A stretch of 64,000 nt of DNA from an uncultured Chloroflexia bacterium (lineage in GTDB: Bacteria > Chloroflexota > Chloroflexia > QHBQ01 > JADMIH01), in contig CAWCNY010000003.1 of assembly GCA_963797095.1 (NCBI GenBank), forward strand, positions 32,001 to 96,000. Direction: 5' to 3'. Positions 50,035 to 64,000 of this stretch are shown one piece after another. The notes beneath the pieces were generated by a model. It had not been told where the DNA came from. It worked only from the letters and a program-made list of their open reading frames with translations, and did not search any database. Each line of letters starts with the position of its first letter. Positions within the stretch are counted from its first letter, which is position 1. A program made the translations under genes and the position numbers.

Positions 50035-50820
50035 TCAGATCGGAAATCTCCCGATCACCTCATTGTATTCCCGCTGTGCATCGCTCATTGCCAGTCGAGA
50101 ATAGATTTCTAGTGACTGGCGGCTCGCATGCCCGGAGTATGGCTGGATTGCAGCATCATCGATCCCTTGTTTCTTCAACCAGGTCAGTAGGAAGTGGCGC
50201 AATTTGTGGGGTGATATCGCCTGGGCGAACCCTGCCGCCTGGCTGTAGCGTGCCAGGATCTTACGCACACCACGCTCACTGTAAGGCTTCTTCCAACTCG
50301 ACTCAAAGAGGTAACTGGCATCTTTGTGGCGCATCGTCTGTATGTGCAACCCCAACGCCTCTTTGAACGTCGCCGGGAATGGCACCCGCCGGTCTTTGCC
50401 CCCCTTGCCACCGTTGATGCTGATTTGGCACTGCCCAAGGTCTATATCGGCAAGCTGAATCTTCACCAACTCGCCGACACGTACTCCTGTGACCAATAAC
50501 AGCTTGATCAATATTACGTCCTGCAGATTCTTGCTCTCCCACACCACTCGGTAGTAGCGCTGTATTTCCTCCTCTGTTGGTACGTAGGGCAGTTTCTGCT
50601 GCTGACGAGGAACCTTAATCTCCAGTTCCGTTCGCAGATGTCGGAACAACTCCTTCATATATATGTAGTCAGGCCGCTCTCCCCGCAGATACTTTGCTAA
50701 CTCCTTTGCCTTCTTGCGCGCCGGTGTTCGGGAGGTTCGTACCGATGTCTTCGTTGCTGTTCCTTCGGTTTCTTTGCTTGCTGTAAGTTCTTTGTTTACG
50801 TCATTCTCCAATCTGCTCAT
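50035..50820 (-). CDS. Tyrosine recombinase (probable Tn3 cointegrate resolvase)
   Basis: GVRVGE, GKGGK, HKLRH, SGH, EIY. Overlaps the tnpA stop codon. Confidence 0.9.
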
Positions 50821-53800
50821 ACAACAGCCTCCATCAAGGGCAATCGCTCCTCCATGTTCAAGCGGAACAGACCATATGGGTTGATATGGCTGTAGATCAG
50901 AGGAGTGAGTGCTCGCAGGTCTTCCGGCTTCATTCGCTCAAGCCAACCCTCCTCGCCAAGCACCTCCTGCAACATCAGTGTGTTAACGTAGACCAGGCAA
51001 TTCTGCACCAGGTGCAGTGCAAGCAGACCGAGTTCCTGGTCGTCCCGGCTGTTGCTGGCTAACTCTCCACCTCGCCCATAAAAGATGAAGCCGTTTGCTG
51101 AATTCCAATTCTCGATAACGTTCAATCCCTCGTGGATTTCCCGCCGCAGTGCTTCTGAACGTAGGTAGCGACAAAGGAAGATAGTCTTTATGGCCTTTCC
51201 CAGTTCGGCTAGTGCTTGATAGGTCGGGTGTTGCAGGTTGTTGCGAGTGAAGCGTCGCAGAATTGCCTCCGTTTCGGCGGTTCCCAGACGCAAAGCAGTT
51301 GCGTACTTCATCATTTGATCGTACTGCTGACGGATCAGGTCCCACTGAATAGGTCTGGTGAGGATCAACTGCAGATTTGGGTATGCGTCAGGTTTTCCGA
51401 TGTCTGGGCGGTAGAGTTTCTGCGCGTGAATAGCCTTGAGCCTGGGCAACAGGTCGAAATTCAAGAGCTTGCAGAAGGCAAACGCTACCTCCGACTGGCC
51501 ATGGGAGTCGACGAAGTTGCGCTCAACCTCCATCGTGGTGCAATGCCGAAGCAAGCCTTCCAGCATGGCGGCCACCTCAGAGGACGAACAACTCTTGAGT
51601 TGCGAGTAGATACAAACCGTACTCTTCTCCACTGACCAATACACCATAACCCCGGGGCCGCGGTAGCGGATATGCCACTCGGTCAACAGGTTCTGGTCCC
51701 ATGCTCCGAATTTCTTGGAGTCAGACACGCATGTCGTCGTGCCCTCGCCCCATATCTGGGGTAGACGCTGAGCGAAAATCGCGTTGGCCACTGTGGCATT
51801 GGCAGCGCGTAACTGCTCACGATCCAGGAAGCGGCGCCGCACATATTGTAGATCCTTGTACGCTTCTCCATGGTCACCGGCGCAGACCCGCTTGAGACCG
51901 GTATTGGTGCCCAGCGCATACAAGCACAAGAGCAAGCGCTTTTGCAGCGTTGAGCGGTCGAGCACTTCCCATGCGGTCGCGCTCTTGAAGTGATTGGTGA
52001 ACCCAACACGTAGGTCCGTTTCCTTCAGGATATCCAACAGAGAGGTCATAGGCCAACGGGCGAAGACGGCAGCTTTTAGCTGGTTCAGGTTACGAGGCTC
52101 CGGCTGCGCATCGAGCGGGGTTAGAGATATCCAACCGCCACCACGGTTCAAAAGGCGCACCTTCTGATTCTTGGGTAACGTTCGGTCCAGTTCCCCTAAC
52201 TCATGGGTCAATTGTTGCTGTAGGTCATGGATGAAGCTCTCCACATCTAATGGCTTCTCTAACGCTTCGTAGTAGGCAGCACGGTGTATATCGAAGTCGG
52301 GCGGCAAGTCCTCTTCAGGATTACGGTAGTGATCGGCGCCCAGCACCCATATTTCTTTACAACGCAGCCTCTCGCGTAACGTTTCCAGCACGCATAGCTC
52401 ATAGTTGATGCGGTTCAGGCGAGGCTGACCGTACTTGTCTTCACCGATAACTATTGGCCTCCAGGGTGACCGGATGACCCCTTCAATCGGCACGGTTTCT
52501 CCTGGTGGATAGTATTGGATGCTGCTCTCAGCGTATTTCTTCAGCAATGCGAGGGCGGAGACCAGCGGTCGATGCACATTGTTATTGGAGTGGAACTCTA
52601 GCACCTCCAGGATACGAGGCACCATACGGCGGTAGTGGTGGCTGTATGAGGAGCGCATACGCAGATGGACCTCCTGTTGATAGGTGCGGCTCGCTTTGTA
52701 CTCCTCAGATACATGGCGCAGGGTTTCCTCACTTACTACAGGGAAGGCGACTTCTTTGACCAAGCCGTCTGGATTGGCAACCAATGCACCGGCCAATTGG
52801 CCGAACATGGCGTTCTTACCCTCGACCTTACGCAACTCGGCCACAAACTGCTGGGTAACCTTCTTCTCAGCCCGCGCTCCAATAGCATGTACAATATCTA
52901 TGAGCAGTTCCACCAGGTTGTCTGTGATCTCCTGTCGGCGCAGATAGCAGTAGGCGGCAACCAGCGTGTAGCGAATGTTGTCGGGGTGGCGGCGTAGTTC
53001 GTACAGTTCTTCGGCGACAGCACGCTGGCGATAGCCGGTCAGTACTTTCGGAGAAAGCCCGGCAAACAGGCTGGCCGGTAAATCCAATTCACGTAGTCGA
53101 GCTAGCTTACCTATCTCGGTCAGTGCGCTTTCGAGGCTTGGTCGGCCAGGGTCATGCCGCAACTCCAGCCAGAAGGGGCGGTCGTCAAGCTCGTTGTAAT
53201 TGGAACTGTTTACGCTGTTTGCTGCTTCAACACTCACACTACTCATACTTGCTGACATAGACCTAGAGGTGGTCACATGCAACAACTTCTGGAGACTCTG
53301 CTTGGTAGTTACGGACAAGCGCCCGGAGATGTCTACGAACAGGCGCTCCTCATAGGTGTGGAAAGCCGAGCGGATTAGGCGCATAATGGGATCAGGCGCA
53401 GGAGGCTCGATGTGCAACTGCCGGAAGCGAGCATAGACCAGTTCCTTGAGGTGTTCAATATCCTGGTCCTGAGCGAGTACATAATTGCAAAGCCAATCAC
53501 TCACCTCCTCTGTATCCGCTCGCAAGGCCTCACGAAAGCCAAAGAAGTCGCGGATTTGCACGCGGTGATTGCTAATCATGCGGCCACGCCAGTCGTAGCG
53601 CAGGTATTCGTCGGCTTCCACGCTCACCTGTTTGGCAACATAGCTAACGACCAGGCGAGGGATTTCGTTCTTGGCTTGGGGAAAGCGAGCTTCTAATTGG
53701 AAGAACTTGAGCAGAACGGCGAAGCCGAGGCGTGTGGGGCCGGTTTTGTTACCCATCAACTCCAGTTCCTTGGGCAACAGGGTCCAGTGCTCGACCAGTT

Positions 53801-53825
53801 CTTCGGTAGTCCAGTTGCGCTTCAT
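50817..53825 (-). CDS. tnpA: Tn3-family transposase
   Basis: 1002 aa. DUF4158-like N-terminus ([11 protein letters not shown]), [24 protein letters not shown]. Confidence 0.96.
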
Positions 53826-57359: not shown

Positions 57360-57427
57360 CAGAGGAGCGCCAAATATCTCTGAAAGGGAAGTGCACCGTT
57401 TTGGGGGGATATGCAAAAACCCCCATC

Positions 57428-58543
57428 TTACCCCGAATAGGCGTTGAGGGGGAGCCTTTCCACACGAGCAGCCAGTTGTGACACAGCAGGTTGGCTGTAA
57501 AGGCGGGTGGTATTGAGCGAACTGTGCCCCAGCAGCGTTGCCAACCCAACCACGTCTCCGGGGTATATAGATAGGTAGCTTCGTGCAAATGTGTGGCGCA
57601 GGGAATGAACGCTCGTCTCTTGCGGGACCAGCGTGCCCGCTGCCTTCACAAGCTCGGCCATCATCTGACCTATGGCCGAGCTTGTGAGCGCTCCGCCTTT
57701 ACGGCTCAACCACAACGGCTCAAGAGCCTGCGCAGTTCCTGGCTTGGGCCACTTTGCGGCCAGTGTCTTGAGGAGCACCTTCAGTGATACCTTCTCTTTC
57801 TTCTCCCACATCTCCCCACCCTCAGTACCTTCCAGATCAAGTCGAGGCGCAACGTAGACAGCCAGCGCCTCACGAGCTGAAGCATTGAGCGGCACAGAGC
57901 GAGCTTTGTTACCCTTGCCTGCTCGGATCAAGAGCATGCCACTGCGCTCCCCGAAAGTGACGTCTCCGAAGTGCAGGCCGCTGCACTCGCTCAAGCGGAT
58001 ACCTGTCTGCAGCAGCACCTGGACAATGGCATAGTTGCGCTCCGTCTCATTGGAGGCTTGAGCCTGCCGAAGAAGAGCATTGACCTGAGAGCTGTTCAGC
58101 CCTTCTCGCTTAGGACTGCTCCCAGTAGCATCTTTACCCCTACTCACCAGTTTCACCCGAGAGGATGGGTCGGACGTCAGATAGCCCTGATCAACCAGCC
58201 AGCTGCACCAGGCGCGTAGAGCGCTGACGCGCAGGTTGATGGTGCTGACCGACTTCTGTTGTTCGTGCTGCAGATGGTTGCGGTAACCGATTAGCGCGAT
58301 AGGCGTTAGTGCCTCCAGTTGCAATGGCGCACCCTCCACTTCCCCTCCGCCTTCTTCCTGCTCGTACCAGTCGAGGAAGCGTAGCACTGCCTCCGCATAC
58401 TTCTCGACGGTGCCGGGTGAACGATCCTGCTCTTGCAAGTACCGTCGCCACTCCTCCAGTTGCCCCAATAGCCGCTCTTGAGTCCACTCCAGACGACCCT
58501 TCCTGATTGGGATTGCCTGTTTTACTGGTTTCACTGGTTCCAT
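57428..58543 (-). CDS. XerC/D-like tyrosine recombinase, divergent from tnsB
   Basis: SAM-like N-domain and the full catalytic set GIRLSE, GKGNK, HSLRH, LGH, RLY. Confidence 0.92.
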   Translation of the reverse strand: MEPVKPVKQAIPIRKGRLEWTQERLLGQLEEWRRYLQEQDRSPGTVEKYAEAVLRFLDWYEQEEGGGEVEGAPLQLEALTPIALIGYRNHLQHEQQKSVSTINLRVSALRAWCSWLVDQGYLTSDPSSRVKLVSRGKDATGSSPKREGLNSSQVNALLRQAQASNETERNYAIVQVLLQTGIRLSECSGLHFGDVTFGERSGMLLIRAGKGNKARSVPLNASAREALAVYVAPRLDLEGTEGGEMWEKKEKVSLKVLLKTLAAKWPKPGTAQALEPLWLSRKGGALTSSAIGQMMAELVKAAGTLVPQETSVHSLRHTFARSYLSIYPGDVVGLATLLGHSSLNTTRLYSQPAVSQLAARVERLPLNAYSG

Positions 58544-58787
58544 TTCCGCTATCCTTTCCCTCTCAATCTACCGCCGATGCCCCGCCGATACCATCGGAAG
58601 ATATTTCCCGCTGTTATTCTTGCTTCTTAACAGAGCTTAGCAGCCCTCGAAGTTGCGGTTGCCAGGCATGGACAACATCTCTCAAGGAGTATACAACAGA
58701 GGGTAAACAGAAAGAAATGGTAATTTCACGGTAACACATCGGCTTATCAGAAATCGGGCAAGAGCAACAAGAAAGGAGTTTGCAGCA

Positions 58788-60521
58788 ATGAAACAACAAC
58801 CAGAACCAGCACCAAAGCCAGCACCACAAGGACCATCCGACCGAGTGGCCCGAAAGGACCCGCCGAACCCGGATGTCGGAGCTCTCTCCGAGCAAATACG
58901 AGACGAGCTTTTCCGGCGTCTTGCTCTGCTCGGGGATCTGGCAGATCGGGAACGATTGAGCAATCCCAGTTTGAAGGAGCGTGCTCAAGAGGTAGGGGTG
59001 TCATATCGCACTCTACGACGCTACCACACCCGCTACCGGCGCTACGGCCTGGTAGGTCTCGCTCCTCGTGCTCGCACCGACAAGGGTAAGCGCTACACAA
59101 TCAGCCCCCAAATGGCCCAAATCGTTGAGAGCCTGAGACTGACCCACCGCGATGCACCGGTTCGCCATGTGTATGAGCTGGCCTGCCAGTATGCCGCAAC
59201 CGCTGGAGAAGCAGTGCCCAGCCCCTACCAGGTTCGCTCCATTTGCGCACAGATTCCGGAGCCGATTCGATTGCTCGCCGACGGGCGAGAAGGGGAGTTT
59301 CGCAACCGCTACCGCCTGACCTACCCCTTACGTCATGACCCTCATCGCATCGTCTGGCAGATTGACCACAAGGATCCTCTGCACGTGATGGTACGTGACC
59401 TCAGAGCACCCTCTCACCGGCGTCCTTCAGGAGAAGTGCGACCATTCCTAACGATGGTGGTTGACAGCGCTTCTCGCTTGGTGATGGCCGGACTGTTTAG
59501 CTATGACGAACCCAATCGCTTTACGGTGGCCGCTGCCATTCGCGATGCCATGCTAGGAGGGCTCACCAATGAGCACAAGCTGTTTGGAGGCGTGCCCGAC
59601 GAGATATGGATCGACAACGGCAAAGACTTGGTCGCTCACCACGTTTACCAACTGGTCGAGGGGTTGGGTATCAAGCTGATTGCAGGACCTCCCCATGCGC
59701 CGGAGATACGTGGCGTAGTCGAGCGGCTGCACCAAACGCTAGATACAAGGCTTTGGTCTACGCTCCCCGGCTATGTGGGCTCCAATGTCGTGGCGCGCAA
59801 CCCCAGGGCTAAAGCCGAGCTTACCATTTCCCAGCTCAACGAGCACTTCCGAGCGTTCATCGACCGCTACCACAACGAGGTCCACAGCGAGACTGGACAA
59901 ACACCTCTGGAGTTCTGGCAGCAACACGCCACCCCAATCCCTGTGGATGAACAACTCCTGCGCTTGCTCGACATGTTGCTCAAGGAGCCTGCCACCAGGC
60001 GAGTGCATAAGGATGGGATCAAGTATGCCGCGGAGCGTTATTGGCACCCGGAGTTGTCAGTGCTCGTTGGCGAGGATGTGTTGGTGCGGGCTGCTCCCCA
60101 TTACACGGCTCCAGACGAGATCGAGGTGTTCTTCGAGGGGAAGTGGCGCTGCACGGCTTTCGCACTCAGTTCCCCACAAGGTCAGACGCTTGAGCGCCAG
60201 GTGATCGTTGAAGCACAGCGCCGACAGCGCGCGCATGCTCGTAGCCGCATTAAGGCTGCCCGCGAGACCGCCATTGATGTCTACCAAACGCTCGAGTCAG
60301 CTTCGCCTTCTTCACCTGTCCCATCTGCCTCCTCCGCTCCCGCCTCTAAACAACAGAGCAGGCGACAACCAGCCTACACCCTCGACACACTCGACGCTCC
60401 AAGTGTTCTTCCAACAACCCGTCAGCCTGACCTGTTTGATTTCCTCATCGCCCAGCAAACCCAGCAGACCCAGCAGACTGGCCAGAACAATCCCAAAGGA
60501 GAACTCGGATGGAATCCATGA
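58788..60521 (+). CDS. tnsB: Mu/TnsB-like DDE transposase
   Basis: HTH (GVSYRTLRRY), LAPRAR.DKG, DDE motifs WQID, WIDNG, VERL, and a Mu-transposase C-terminal barrel. Confidence 0.9.
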   Translation: MKQQPEPAPKPAPQGPSDRVARKDPPNPDVGALSEQIRDELFRRLALLGDLADRERLSNPSLKERAQEVGVSYRTLRRYHTRYRRYGLVGLAPRARTDKGKRYTISPQMAQIVESLRLTHRDAPVRHVYELACQYAATAGEAVPSPYQVRSICAQIPEPIRLLADGREGEFRNRYRLTYPLRHDPHRIVWQIDHKDPLHVMVRDLRAPSHRRPSGEVRPFLTMVVDSASRLVMAGLFSYDEPNRFTVAAAIRDAMLGGLTNEHKLFGGVPDEIWIDNGKDLVAHHVYQLVEGLGIKLIAGPPHAPEIRGVVERLHQTLDTRLWSTLPGYVGSNVVARNPRAKAELTISQLNEHFRAFIDRYHNEVHSETGQTPLEFWQQHATPIPVDEQLLRLLDMLLKEPATRRVHKDGIKYAAERYWHPELSVLVGEDVLVRAAPHYTAPDEIEVFFEGKWRCTAFALSSPQGQTLERQVIVEAQRRQRAHARSRIKAARETAIDVYQTLESASPSSPVPSASSAPASKQQSRRQPAYTLDTLDAPSVLPTTRQPDLFDFLIAQQTQQTQQTGQNNPKGELGWNP

Positions 60522-61522
60522 CCTCGATGATCCCAGAATATGCCGACGACCTCGACTTCGAGAACCGCCTGCCGTTCGGCCAGGCACCCATCATGACCAA
60601 CAGCGTCCAGCGCTTCCACGCCTGCATGCAGTTTATCATGCAATCCCGTGAGCAGACCGGTTATGCCACCATGGGCCTCGTCACCGGCGATGCAGGCCTT
60701 GGCAAGACCATCGCTATTCAGACGTATCTGCAGGATCTCAAGCCAAGAGCTTACAGCGGCTTTCCTGCCTGCGTCAGCATCAAAGTCAGCCCACGCTCCA
60801 CCGCTAAGGCCCTCGCCAAAACGCTGATCACGACCCTCAACGGCGAACGCGGCGGGTACAACGTCTATGACATGGAAGGTATGGTCGCACAAGCCATCCG
60901 GCGTAATGACCTGGACCTGGTGTTGGTTGATGAGGGAGACTGGCTGAACGTAGAGAGCTTTGAGATGCTGCGTCACATCTTCGACCGCACCGGCTGCCCC
61001 ATCGTGGTTGTGGGGCTGCCTCGTATCCTGAGGGTGATCAACCGCCATGAGAAGTTCGTGAGCCGCATAGGGTTGCACATGGAGTTCCTGCCCCTCACCC
61101 AGGAAGAGGTGCTGACCACTGTGCTGCCTAGCATGACCCTGCCGCTATGGCAATACGATGTCGACAACCCTGCGGACCAGCAAATGGGTGTCCAGTTGTG
61201 GCAGCGAGTATGCCCTTCATTCCGGAAGTTGCGTGTGGTGCTGCAATATGCCAGTCAAATCGCATGTGCACGAGAGGCGGAGAGGATCACGCCTGAAATC
61301 CTGGCCGAGACACTCCGCCTCATACTGATCCCACAATTACCATCATTGCGACAAGGACCACGCGAGCCTGGAAGATCGCAAGGTTCGCAAAGCCCACAAG
61401 ACGGAGTTTGTGCGGTCGGAGCGACCGGACCTTACGAGGCGGCGTCGGAGCAACGGCCATCCAAACGACAAGCTAAACGACCACCCAGGCGAGTATCACA
61501 CAATGAGGCCCTAACCCAATGA
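60509..61522 (+). CDS. tnsC: TnsC/TniB/MuB-like AAA+ ATPase
   Basis: GDAGLGKT, LVLVDE, VVVG, SRIG. Overlaps the tnsB stop codon. Confidence 0.88.
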   Translation: MESMTSMIPEYADDLDFENRLPFGQAPIMTNSVQRFHACMQFIMQSREQTGYATMGLVTGDAGLGKTIAIQTYLQDLKPRAYSGFPACVSIKVSPRSTAKALAKTLITTLNGERGGYNVYDMEGMVAQAIRRNDLDLVLVDEGDWLNVESFEMLRHIFDRTGCPIVVVGLPRILRVINRHEKFVSRIGLHMEFLPLTQEEVLTTVLPSMTLPLWQYDVDNPADQQMGVQLWQRVCPSFRKLRVVLQYASQIACAREAERITPEILAETLRLILIPQLPSLRQGPREPGRSQGSQSPQDGVCAVGATGPYEAASEQRPSKRQAKRPPRRVSHNEALTQ

Positions 61523-63063
61523 GAACGAACCCGTTTAGCATCGCAGATGCTCCCCCCTGGCTCTCAGATCTGGAAGGTTCGGAGCAGCCTGCCAAACTAC
61601 CGAGACAACTAAGGCAACTGGGAATGGTCCCGCACATCCTGGGGCGATTACTTGAAGTGGCCGAGGCTATCCCGCGACTGTACGATGCGCTTCCCTGGCT
61701 CAGAGACATGAGTGTGGAGGCACTAATCACGGAGCGCTATTCGAGGGCACTGTTCTCAAACTCCTTGGGCTTCTCAGACCGAGATCAGTTGTCTTCAGAG
61801 CCAGAGCCAGAGCCAGAACCAGAGCTGGAGCAGGAGGCGACCCTGACCACCTTCTTCCGGGAGGTAACTGAGCCGGTAGCTGGGATGATCGAAGCCCTCT
61901 ACGTTTCGCCTTTGCTTCGTGAGAGACATACGGTCTGGGAGATCGTTGGTCGGATGGCGCGATCTGCGCGTGAGAATGCATTACCTGAAGACGTAGTGAC
62001 AGGTGTCTGTGCCAGCGTCCTTCGCGAGCGCGCTGCGGTGCTGAGAAAAGGGATACAACCACGACCAGCAAACTGGAAGGTCACCTGGCGTCCAACATCG
62101 GTGTGCATACGGTGGCCGACACGGTGGCCACGTCGGCCACTTCCGCTCGATCCTCCTGTGAACTCGTTTGTGGTTGTGGTGACGGAGGAAACGACCGGCG
62201 AAGGAGGCAGAGCCCCAAGGGGAGGTAGAGTTGGGGCAGAAGGCAATGGGAGAGAGGGAGAAGTGCGAGAAAGGGTGCTGGCCTTTCGTTGCACACCTGG
62301 TGTACCTGGTACTGGTATCTGTGGTGCCCGTGATACCTGCGGCGTCATTGACATTGAGGCCCTCGAAACTGCCATGGAGCTGGCTCTTTACGACGCGTTG
62401 GCGTTCCCCCTCTCGGCTGAGGGCCGGTTCGTATGGTCTCCCTGGCACATTTCTCCGCCAACGCATCTTTATGTGCAGGCTCCTATGCCTAAAGCAATTC
62501 GACAAGCAGCGAGTGTGTGGCGCATCAAGGCGGAAGAAATCATCCAACCAGGGTCGCAACGAGATTCAGAGCGTAAGAAGGATCGGGAGTGCGAGTGGGA
62601 ATGGGGGTGGGAATGGGAATGGGAGAGGGACCTGACTGGCAGGGTGCTCGATCCTCTTCAGTATCTACGTATCCTGGACCGAGTATGTGAACGAGCATGC
62701 GGCAATGCACCCTTCCTGGCAAAGCAACAGGTAACCCGTAACCTGGGCTGGCACATGCTTCCTGAGCACGATCCTCTTATGCACTGCCCAGGCCTCGGAG
62801 AGTTACTTCCCTCATATCCTGCGGTGGTGGGAGGGGACGGAAGCGTGGAATGGAACGAGTGGCACTACCGTGACTACGACGAGAACGTACTGCGCTACTT
62901 CCCAGGGTCACGCGTCACGATCCGTCCATCTCCACTCGCTGAGGCGGCGGTGTTGGTGTACTGGCGCGGCTCGGTTCTTTGTTACGCGGTGGCCGAGGAA
63001 CTACGTCACGAAGATGGTAGCTACCGCCCTTACTGGTTTCCGTACCCACGCCTCGGCGAGTGA
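61519..63063 (+). CDS. Catalytically degenerate TnsB paralog
   Basis: Colinear similarity to the neighbouring TnsB without the DDE acidic residues. The C-terminal Mu-type barrel is retained. Confidence 0.7.
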   Translation: MRTNPFSIADAPPWLSDLEGSEQPAKLPRQLRQLGMVPHILGRLLEVAEAIPRLYDALPWLRDMSVEALITERYSRALFSNSLGFSDRDQLSSEPEPEPEPELEQEATLTTFFREVTEPVAGMIEALYVSPLLRERHTVWEIVGRMARSARENALPEDVVTGVCASVLRERAAVLRKGIQPRPANWKVTWRPTSVCIRWPTRWPRRPLPLDPPVNSFVVVVTEETTGEGGRAPRGGRVGAEGNGREGEVRERVLAFRCTPGVPGTGICGARDTCGVIDIEALETAMELALYDALAFPLSAEGRFVWSPWHISPPTHLYVQAPMPKAIRQAASVWRIKAEEIIQPGSQRDSERKKDRECEWEWGWEWEWERDLTGRVLDPLQYLRILDRVCERACGNAPFLAKQQVTRNLGWHMLPEHDPLMHCPGLGELLPSYPAVVGGDGSVEWNEWHYRDYDENVLRYFPGSRVTIRPSPLAEAAVLVYWRGSVLCYAVAEELRHEDGSYRPYWFPYPRLGE

Positions 63064-63249
63064 TATCTATCATCTCACTCTAGCTCACTAGCTCACTTAC
63101 TCACTTTTCCAAAGTGGAAAAGCATACCAAACTACCTGGCACGATGGTAGGCTATTTCGCGCGTCTGTATTACCAGCAAACCCGTACACAGGCGGAGAAT
63201 GGTTCACATATGAACCAGGGACAACGAAAGCCGCAAATCGGGGACACTC

Positions 63250-63329
63250 AAAATTGCACTCAGGTGTAACGTTAGCCTTTGAGTTGCACTGATTTGTGGC
63301 TTTGAGTTGCACTGGTTCAGTGCTAAACA
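63250..63329 (-). repeat. Candidate transposon right end: terminal TGT plus repeated transposase-binding sites
   Basis: Reverse complement reads TGTTTAGC-ACTGAACCAGTGCAACTCAAAG-CCACAAATCAGTGCAACTCAAAG, then a third weaker GAGTGCAATTTT. Confidence 0.55.
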
Positions 63330-63391
63330 ATTGGCTGGGCCTGGCTCGCCGCTGATGAAGGTAGGACAGGACGGTCGCTGGTCATTCCTGA

Positions 63392-64000
63392 TCATTCACC
63401 CAACCGAGGGTAGGGGAACCAGTATGAGCGGCATGTGCCGTCCTCGTGGCGTAATTCCTCGGCAACCGCATAACACAGGATCAATCCTCGCCAGTAGACC
63501 ACAATAACAGCCTCATTTAGCGGGGAGCATCTGACCCTGACGTGGGCGTGCTGGAAATAGCGCAACACGTCCGCCTGGTAGTCTCGATAGTGCCAACCAT
63601 GCCCGCCACGCGGCCATTCAATGCTTCCATCATCGCCCACCTCTGCGGGATAAGACGGGAGCAGTTCTTGGAGGCCTATGTAGTTCAGCAGCGGGTCATG
63701 GTCGGGGTGCATGCTCCAAAGCCAACCCTGACGGTGTATGACCCGCTGTTTGGCGAGGAAGGGTGCATAGCCATAGGTCCTCTCCAGTGCGCGGTCCAAA
63801 ATACGCATGTAGTGGAGAGGATCGAGCACTCGGCCGACTAACTCCTTCTCCCACTTCTCCCATTCTTCTTCTCGTTCGCCGACCCAGTCTGTTGCCTCTC
63901 TTTCCGGTGGGCTACCAACTTCTTCAATCTGTTCTACCTGCTCTACCTGCTCTACCTGCATACCCCACACACTGGCTGCCTCCCTGATCGCTCCGGGTAC
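63392..64000 (-). CDS. Second degenerate-TnsB paralog (3' part; open at the window edge)
   Basis: AIREAASVW, GRVLDPL.Y.RILDR, APFLAKQ, YAVAEELRHEDG and the identical terminus YWFPYPRLGE. Confidence 0.85.
   Translation of the reverse strand, partial: VPGAIREAASVWGMQVEQVEQVEQIEEVGSPPEREATDWVGEREEEWEKWEKELVGRVLDPLHYMRILDRALERTYGYAPFLAKQRVIHRQGWLWSMHPDHDPLLNYIGLQELLPSYPAEVGDDGSIEWPRGGHGWHYRDYQADVLRYFQHAHVRVRCSPLNEAVIVVYWRGLILCYAVAEELRHEDGTCRSYWFPYPRLGE

Follow-up and report, generated by a model that had tools for sequence, protein, structure and literature searches.

A TnsB paralog without the DDE triad in the operon position of TniQ in a compact CRISPR-less transposon of a soil Chloroflexota genome

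How does a transposon built around TnsB and TnsC choose its target when it has no TniQ? The question is raised by a 64,000-nt stretch of the 6.0-Mb genome of a soil Chloroflexota bacterium (genome G000, with contigs C1, C2, C3 and C5; the window, that is the whole stretch analysed, is G000:C3:32001-96000, and positions below are those of the window unless a contig or locus is named). A four-gene block at 57428-63063 comprises a tyrosine recombinase gene (yrec) on the minus strand followed by tnsB, tnsC and a third gene, orf3, all on the plus strand. It forms a compact TnsB/TnsC transposon of the Mu/Tn5053/Tn7-like kind, hereafter E1, which lacks TnsA and TniQ and is organised as end, yrec, tnsB, tnsC, orf3, end; a related element, E2, adjoins it. 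An earlier interpretation made without database searches, hereafter the sequence-only reading, had proposed that orf3 is a catalytically dead TnsB paralog standing where TniQ would be expected, and our analysis agrees. Orf3 is a TnsB/MuA-fold paralog of the neighbouring transposase that retains one helix-turn-helix (HTH)-like domain, the RNase H-like core and the Mu-type beta-barrel, it sits in the operon position of TniQ, and its alignment with TnsB indicates that the DDE triad has been lost. On balance, we think it probable that Orf3 serves TnsC as an adaptor or target selector, much as TniQ does elsewhere.

Fold, catalytic residues and conservation of Orf3

The orf3 gene (61519-63063, plus strand) encodes a CasMuC-like protein of 514 amino acids that has no Pfam match at E ≤ 1 and no match to any NCBIfam family. 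The sequence-only reading had aligned it colinearly with TnsB by eye. Pairwise BLASTP between the two proteins is not significant (best E 0.39, and 1.5 for the stretch quoted in that reading), so that the by-eye match taken alone is no better than chance. Among PDB sequences, neither phmmer with Orf3 (best E 0.57) nor the Orf3 family profile (best E 1.4) matched TnsB, the best match being an unrelated protein each time. Because single-sequence and profile-versus-sequence searches missed TnsB, the homology could only be established by profile-profile and fold comparison. The hhalign comparison of 79 Orf3 relatives with 28 TnsB relatives reached a probability of 99.0% (E 2.6e-18) over 319 colinear columns, pairing Orf3 residues 95-494 with TnsB residues 84-461 and recovering the blocks VTEPVAGMIEAL/ISPQMAQIVESL, FVVVVTEE/FLTMVVDS, LALYDAL/AAIRDAM (Orf3/TnsB) and the C-terminal barrel; at the level of the two families, the claimed colinearity thus stands. 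The TnsB-like fold that it implied is also found in the AlphaFold2 model of Orf3 (mean predicted local distance difference test, pLDDT, 70). Foldseek matched this model to ShCAST TnsB (E 9e-11) as well as to MuA, Tn7 TnsB and IstA (E between 9e-11 and 9e-6), and VIA-align superposed it on residues 198-488 of ShCAST TnsB with a Z score of 14.6 (root-mean-square deviation 3.6 over 217 residues), compared with 13.7 for Tn7 TnsB, 13.1 for the MuA core (262-560), 9.2 for IstA and at most 8.7 for retroviral or plain integrase cores. Further support comes from the Pfam domain Mu-transpos_C, detected at the C-terminus of 19 of the 24 scanned Orf3-family members (E ≤ 0.01), several of them above the 21.7-bit cut-off.

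The domains of Orf3 are an HTH-like domain (residues ~95-175), the RNase H-like core (182 to ~345), a helical region and the beta-barrel (431-493), completed by a conserved C-terminal tail and by an N-terminal region of its own bearing a conserved NPF motif. Three low-complexity inserts, an EPEPEPEPE run (window 61790-61820), a G/R/E-rich loop (62200-62260) and ECEWEWGWEWEWE, of the EWEWGWEWEWE type (62550-62610), fall in loops with pLDDT below 50. Only some protomers are catalytic in the solved strand-transfer complexes of TnsB and MuA, and Orf3 could accordingly be a structural, non-catalytic subunit of the transpososome, replacing the non-catalytic TnsB/MuA protomers on the ends with its HTH-like domain placed on the end repeats. 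It does keep the TnsB domains that touch DNA and neighbouring protomers, as seen in the aligned range and in the superposition of core and barrel, but it has no counterpart of the first DNA-binding domain of TnsB (residues 1-83) or of its long C-terminal tail (the 116 residues 462-577). Moreover, Orf3 diverges far faster than TnsB while the E1-type and E2-type end repeats stay similar, and the sister clade described below couples it to Cascade genes, not to ends. We regard a purely structural role as somewhat unlikely.

The comparison with TnsB also bears on catalysis. The adjacent tnsB gene (58788-60521, plus strand) encodes a MuA/TnsB-type DDE transposase of 577 amino acids whose closest solved relative is ShCAST TnsB (E 4e-32) and which contains Mu-transpos_C (Pfam, 6.1e-8) and several HTH domains; its triad D193, D276 and E312 is intact and invariant in 28 relatives. 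In the hhalign alignment, D193 is replaced in Orf3 by T189, D276 by Q320 and E312 by a gap. The sequence-only reading had correctly seen the loss of D193 and the Q320 opposite D276, but had placed the partner of D193 in WRPT, while it lies in WKVT. Among the 79 Orf3 relatives, the column equivalent to the first aspartate is acidic in three and that of the second in 26; the acidic columns kept in at least 70% of them (158, 223, 292, 387, 418, 475 and 494) include no triad position, and within the RNase H-like core no D/E column was found at any triad position. Orf3 is thus predicted to be catalytically dead, its DDE triad being lost.

Between these two genes lies tnsC (60509-61522, plus strand), coding for a TniB/MuB-type AAA+ ATPase of 337 amino acids (Pfam AAA_22 4.6e-17, TniB 2.9e-9) whose Walker A residues G63, G65 and K66, together with E142, are invariant in 16 relatives. 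As read directly from the sequence, tnsB and tnsC overlap by 13 nt (tnsC ATG at 60509, tnsB TGA at 60519-21), and tnsC and orf3 by 4 nt, their stop and start codons sharing ATGA at 61519-22, which confirms the gene positions and overlapping codons reported earlier. The absence of TniQ and TnsA is likewise confirmed: Pfam finds neither domain in the four element proteins, Orf3 and its neighbours, and a six-frame search of the whole genome gave no match to TniQ (PF06527). Orf3 would be co-transcribed and translationally coupled with TnsC, an arrangement that would also suit a negative regulator, i.e. a dominant-negative look-alike that competes with the active transposase for the ends or for TnsC and thereby limits transposition or confers target immunity. 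Dead or truncated transposase derivatives act as inhibitors in other families, the Tn5 inhibitor protein being an example. However, the place of orf3 in the operon and its association with Cascade genes in the sister clade argue for a positive role in targeting, and two related elements inserted end-in-end in the host genome are the opposite of strong immunity; we find this explanation quite unlikely. A direct functional link between Orf3 and TnsC is supported by protein P0057 (703 amino acids), a natural TniB-Orf3 fusion. The complex predicted from TnsC (16-row alignment) and Orf3 (24-row alignment) scored a median of 0.29 against a mark of 0.32, and it was used neither for nor against binding. 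Another protein, P0027, starts with a fragment of the TnsB C-terminal core that is fused straight to the Orf3 body, apparently through a deletion that removed tnsC.

The Orf3 family is large and constrained. At E ≤ 1e-3, an exhaustive profile search returned 180 cluster representatives (25 homologs with a word-indexed search), and 60 columns are invariant across 24 sequences. The ratio of nonsynonymous to synonymous substitution rates (dN/dS), whose calculation the sequence-only reading had suggested, is 0.28 for the least saturated pair, E1 and the locus L002 of a same-genus genome (dS 0.41), and 0.13-0.25 for deeper pairs, compared with 0.05-0.13 for tnsB, tnsC and yrec. Between E1 and E2, orf3 has a dN of 0.40 and a dS of 2.5, and the three other genes have a dN of 0.105-0.115 and a dS of 0.84-1.07. 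Therefore, orf3 is under purifying selection yet fast-evolving, and it may have been swapped between elements as a module. That its dN so exceeds those of the other E1/E2 genes resembles the evolution of a selector and is one reason to favour this role. The low-complexity inserts, the faster evolution relative to the neighbouring genes and an internal stop in the copy of a second Chloroflexota genome, G225, could instead designate orf3 as a decaying duplicate without function. We strongly disfavour this possibility in view of the dN/dS values, the invariant columns and the number of representatives with conserved synteny.

A cas-linked sister branch and the role of Orf3

The profile of the window clade matches proteins of ~400 amino acids (E 1e-56 to 1e-10) encoded in loci with the order tnsB-tnsC-orf3-cas6-cas8-cas7-cas5, and tblastn of Orf3 against two of these cas-linked loci, L016 and L017, gives ~26% identity (E 1e-19 and 3e-19). 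In L017, an Xre-type HTH gene is followed by tnsB, two tniB-like genes, the orf3 homolog, cas6, a 540-amino-acid gene, cas7 (DevR/Csa2) and a 240-amino-acid gene, with a mini-array of ~37-nt repeats and then transposon-end repeats downstream. A metagenome scan with a 20-row alignment yielded 49 loci, 48 of them with an Orf3 match. The gene immediately upstream is tnsC in 31 of the 35 loci with at least 1 kb of upstream sequence, the four misses being orf3 fragments, and tnsB is present in 20 of the 21 that have 3.2 kb or more. Downstream, cas6 is adjacent in 31 of the 32 loci that extend at least 1 kb, the exception being a fragment in a 220-kb contig, and a yrec-like match occurs in only one of the 48. 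By sequence, Orf3 and the product of the gene found between tnsC and cas6-cas8-cas7-cas5 in CasMu-I-type transposons are members of one protein family. Some of these loci contain tandem pairs of tniB-like genes (L017:8092-9979; L020, L021, L026, L028-L033), and in several the complete set is preceded by an additional, incomplete cas6-tnsB-tnsC set, a pattern suggestive of nested or tandem elements.

The CasMu-I systems are type I-A CRISPR-associated Mu-like transposons, and the inactivated MuA/TnsB paralog that they encode was named CasMuC; the available text of that report presents an AlphaFold2-predicted contact between CasMuC and Cas8 and puts forward an adaptor hypothesis (Altae-Tran et al. 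2023, Science, PMC10910872). In the passages of the 2025 CRISPR classification that deal with them, type I-A CRISPR-associated transposons (CASTs) are described as devoid of TniQ-TnsD and experimentally uncharacterised, and a new mode of Cascade-transposase coupling is expected because CasMu-I transposons lack TniQ (Makarova et al. 2025, PMC12669027). The statement of the sequence-only reading that no family with this layout had been described must consequently be abandoned, as must its extension to the recombinase, since TnsA-less elements with tyrosine resolvases are also on record (PMC8649781, as far as its available text goes). The proximity of cas6 to orf3 in the sister clade, the predicted CasMuC-Cas8 contact and the lack of TniQ/TnsD in such CASTs, as these sections of the literature present them, are a second reason for a TniQ-like reading of Orf3.

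A quick maximum-likelihood tree of 36 Orf3 proteins, from which the truncated sequence of locus L015 was dropped, separates the CRISPR-less group formed by E1, E2, L002, L003 and L004 from all cas-linked proteins by a branch of length 1.66 with full support (Shimodaira-Hasegawa-like approximate likelihood ratio test, SH-aLRT, 100); as the tree is rooted at its midpoint only, the root does not fix which clade is ancestral. A small CRISPR-less group (L018, L050 and L051) is nested inside the cas-linked clade, and one of its members carries an extra 309-amino-acid gene between tnsB and tnsC (L018:868-1797) that has no Pfam or NCBIfam match. The close Orf3 clade was detected in five of 401 sampled genomes of the phylum, with strong matches only in G000 and G225, and in nine of 401 genomes of the class, including four of the 26 genomes of the genus when G000 is counted. 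In its loci, too, tnsC lies upstream of orf3; the linkage of Orf3 homologs to tnsB and tnsC that the sequence-only reading relied on therefore holds in this clade as in the metagenome loci.

In six loci of the close clade (E1, E2, L002, L003, L004 and L015), a transposon end follows orf3 by 100-440 nt and no cas gene is present. Given the homology to the cas-linked clade, Orf3 could nevertheless act like its CasMu-I counterparts and link TnsC to a Cascade complex that a different host locus provides in trans. These short downstream segments speak against it, and tblastn with Cas6, Cas8, Cas7 and Cas5 of L017 found no homologs in the host genome (E ≤ 1e-3; other Cascade types were not searched). 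We consider a Cascade in trans very improbable.

Elements, ends and a possible transposition route

A relative in another genome suggests that these gene blocks are transposons. The element of G225 (L015/L078, joined coordinates G225:C32:9788-20414) measures 10.6 kb, has termini TGTCAC...GTGACA with two repeats per end and is flanked by a clean 5-bp target duplication, TGATC; its yrec lies within these boundaries, and its cargo, between tnsB and yrec, consists of genes for a MalT-like LuxR-type regulator and a SnoaL-like protein. The termini and the duplication therefore mark this relative as a real Mu/Tn7-type transposon with the recombinase inside, and make the same probable for the family. 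In the window, yrec (57428-58543, minus strand) encodes an XerC/D-like tyrosine recombinase of 371 amino acids, the presumed cointegrate resolvase, which matches Pfam Phage_integrase (1.4e-24) with a SAM-like N-domain, as well as NCBIfam XerC (2.5e-42, under the family cut-off). Its catalytic set is complete (R183, K213, H313, R316, H340 and Y349), and the sequence-only reading was right to count it as part of the element, since it is enclosed by the boundaries of both E2 and the G225 copy. The divergent region between yrec and tnsB (58544-58787), which presumably contains promoters, is 77-80% conserved with its E2 copy.

E2 was found directly to the right of E1 by tblastn on the genome, as a second gene set in inverted, tail-to-tail orientation (orf3' ~38%, tnsC' 79%, tnsB' 79% and yrec' 78% identical). 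It spans C3:95265-101439, i.e. 63265 to 69439 in window numbering (6175 nt, extending beyond the window), has inverted termini TGTAAC...GTTACA that enclose yrec', and is apparently intact. Its four genes take up the whole element, which leaves no space for genes of TniQ, TnsA or Cas proteins. The part inside the window (63265-64000, minus strand) comprises the terminus TGTAAC at 63265, 16-nt TnsB-type repeats at 63275-63290 and 63298-63313, and the C-terminal part of orf3' (63392-64000). There are two such repeats, of the AGTGCAACTCAAAG type, at the orf3' end of the element, and the yrec' end has four, placed 22-23 nt apart. Within its coding region, orf3' contains a 9-nt unit repeated ten times in tandem (L001:10327-10434). 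No target-site duplication flanks E2 (TCAGG vs GCTGC), which would fit intramolecular replicative transposition or a later rearrangement.

The E2 terminus cuts the end array of E1 on the orf3 side. What is left of this end (63197-63264, plus strand) contains the palindrome TGGTTCACATATGAACCA at 63200-63217, two 16-nt repeats (63217-63232 and 63240-63255) and the initial 3 nt of another; its undamaged homologue in L002 carries four repeats together with the terminus GAAAGTGACA. We also sought the recombinase-side end of E1 and found that an unrelated repeat had replaced it: a 38-nt terminal inverted repeat of another repeated element (57385-57422) stands in its place, a few nt from the yrec stop, and its copies also delimit elements on C1 and C5. 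A 3.3-kb stretch, C3:86120-89425, shares 100% identity with C5:166392-163087, the match ending 3 nt from the stop codon of yrec, and C3:84000-86123 shares 99.9% identity with C1:576560-574438; the region to the left of yrec is therefore a mosaic of recently duplicated mobile DNA. A Tn3-family transposase gene (50817-53825, 1002 amino acids, Pfam DDE_Tnp_Tn3 4.7e-139) lies upstream of the 38-nt repeat. E1 has thus lost both termini and is probably immobile. The transposon recognised by the sequence-only reading is real, but the damage at both of its ends and the adjoining, apparently intact copy had been overlooked; of the span then assigned to it, 57428-63329, the genes reach 63063, and the remainder takes in a spurious open reading frame of 77 amino acids laid over the end repeats of the two transposons.

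End repeats are present in E1, E2, L002, L003, L004, L015 and L018. The palindrome TGGTTC-N6-GAACCA occurs once per element beside the inner end repeat, with conserved arms and variable 6-nt centres (ACATAT, ACTCAT, ACACAT, ATATAT); the four-repeat end that bears it adjoins orf3 in E1, L002 and L003, but yrec' in E2. The left end of the L003 element was not found within 2.6 kb upstream of tnsB. In L002, an insertion sequence with a DDE_5 transposase (9.3e-27) separates tnsC from orf3 of the E1-like element (L002:1641-2993).

A transposition route can be proposed in which Orf3 is the adaptor for TnsC. By analogy with Mu, Tn7, Tn5053 and CASTs, TnsB would bind and pair the 16-nt repeats of both ends and transfer the 3' ends only, and TnsC would mark the target and activate TnsB. 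Orf3 would couple the chosen target to TnsC without Cascade, contacting the target either directly, with the DNA-binding domain kept from its transposase ancestry, or by way of a host factor. Since TnsA is absent, transposition would be replicative; the resulting cointegrates would be resolved by Yrec, probably at the palindrome just inside one end, which is a candidate site.

Several observations weigh against a selector role for Orf3. In the G225 copy, orf3 has an internal stop (TGA) and yrec is split in two frames, and the E1 ends are damaged, so that some copies are decaying. Constraint on orf3 is weaker than on tnsB and tnsC (dN/dS 0.13-0.28 vs 0.05-0.13), as would also befit a less critical accessory protein. 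Inspection by eye of the DNA beyond five orf3-side termini revealed no shared flanking sequence, and a sequence-specific selector is therefore not evident. Finally, with only ~26% identity and a long branch between the window clade and the cas-linked one, their functions may differ.

A bolder version of the adaptor role is that the dead paralog is a self-sufficient, protein-only replacement of TniQ/TnsD that predates, or is independent of, Cascade capture, and that it may steer new copies into or beside the ends of resident relatives by recognising end-like DNA. Such recognition would be conceivable because its DNA-binding domain derives from a transposase. The idea arises from two cases in which E2-type termini are found inside the end arrays of other family members: E2 itself, which sits in the E1 end array, and a solo E2-type four-repeat end on C5 (C5:5738-5829, 94.6% identical to that of E2, truncated on its inner side), 2 nt past which lie another 16-nt site and the GCAAGTGACA terminus of a different family member. 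We hold this version to be unlikely. Insertion into the ends of relatives as a general rule for the whole family was considered and found unsupported, the target of the G225 element being ordinary DNA.

Remnants of further copies are scattered in G000, as yrec fragments (57-91% identical), tnsB fragments (88-89%) and an E1-type palindrome with its first repeat (C1:116930-117814, C2:714950-715309, C3:1106426-1106761, C3:1079238-1079588, C1:587108-587728 and 591809-591922, C2:712847-712887). Outside the window, C3:8195-10600 holds a third tnsB/tnsC pair with identities of only 28% and 25%; searched with the family profile, the genome contains no third Orf3-family match.

Comparison with known systems

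In Tn7, Tn5053 and CASTs, TniQ/TnsD occupies the same operon position after tnsC and has the same role as that presumed for Orf3, the coupling of target choice to TnsC, but its zinc-finger TniQ domain is unrelated to the TnsB/MuA-like fold of Orf3. Tn5053/Tn402 (tniA-tniB-tniQ-tniR) shares TniA/TnsB and TniB with the window element, from which TniQ is absent and in which the recombinase is of the tyrosine and not of the serine type (TniR). ShCAST (type V-K) provides the closest solved relative of TnsB and, by fold, of Orf3 (PDB 7svw, 8ea3 and 8aa5); in contrast to Orf3, ShCAST TnsB is catalytically active, and it acts with TniQ and Cas12k.

As for the recombinase, the available text of a survey of Tn7-like transposons describes tnsA-less members with tyrosine or serine resolvases ('tnsR'), for which replicative transposition was predicted (Benler et al. 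2021, mBio, PMC8649781). These elements, Tn5053 included, resemble ours in having tnsB and tnsC, no tnsA and an internal site-specific recombinase, but according to the same text tnsD/tniQ is present in 73-97% of them per clade, whereas the third gene of the window element is a dead TnsB. The recruitment of a recombination enzyme without catalysis as an accessory protein or target selector of a TnsB/TnsC transposon also has a precedent in TnsF of Tn6022, an inactivated tyrosine recombinase used as target selector, as far as the consulted part of that study describes it (Faure et al. 2023, Mol Cell, PMC10293859); TnsF works with a short TniQ, whereas Orf3 derives from a DDE transposase and has no TniQ beside it.

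The nearest counterpart of Orf3 is CasMuC, to which it was matched by the published description and locus architecture only. On the portions of the CasMu-I report used here, both are dead paralogs of the adjacent transposase; their genes directly follow that of the MuB/TnsC ATPase, and the elements lack TniQ/TnsD. The window element differs in having no cas genes, no CRISPR array and no Xre-like HTH gene, and in its internal tyrosine recombinase; the proposed partner Cas8 is absent, as is the Cas3-less type I-A effector module with which CasMu-I is associated. We found no literature on CRISPR-less relatives of CasMuC, nor any that reports a dead TnsB paralog in Tn5053-like elements or elsewhere beyond CasMu-I, although supplements may list such loci.

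In a natural CRISPR-less relative of only four genes and 6.2 kb, the contribution of the dead paralog can be considered by itself. If Orf3 alone loads or positions TnsC, it would be a second, independently evolved answer to the problem solved by TniQ, and one simple to reconstitute. The element is also relevant to the order in which these systems arose, i.e. whether a pre-existing adaptor enabled the capture of Cascade or Cascade was lost later. Both the protein family (CasMuC) and the recombinase layout are already known, each separately; what is new is a deep-branching CRISPR-less clade in which the recombinase lies inside a compact element of ~6.2 kb.

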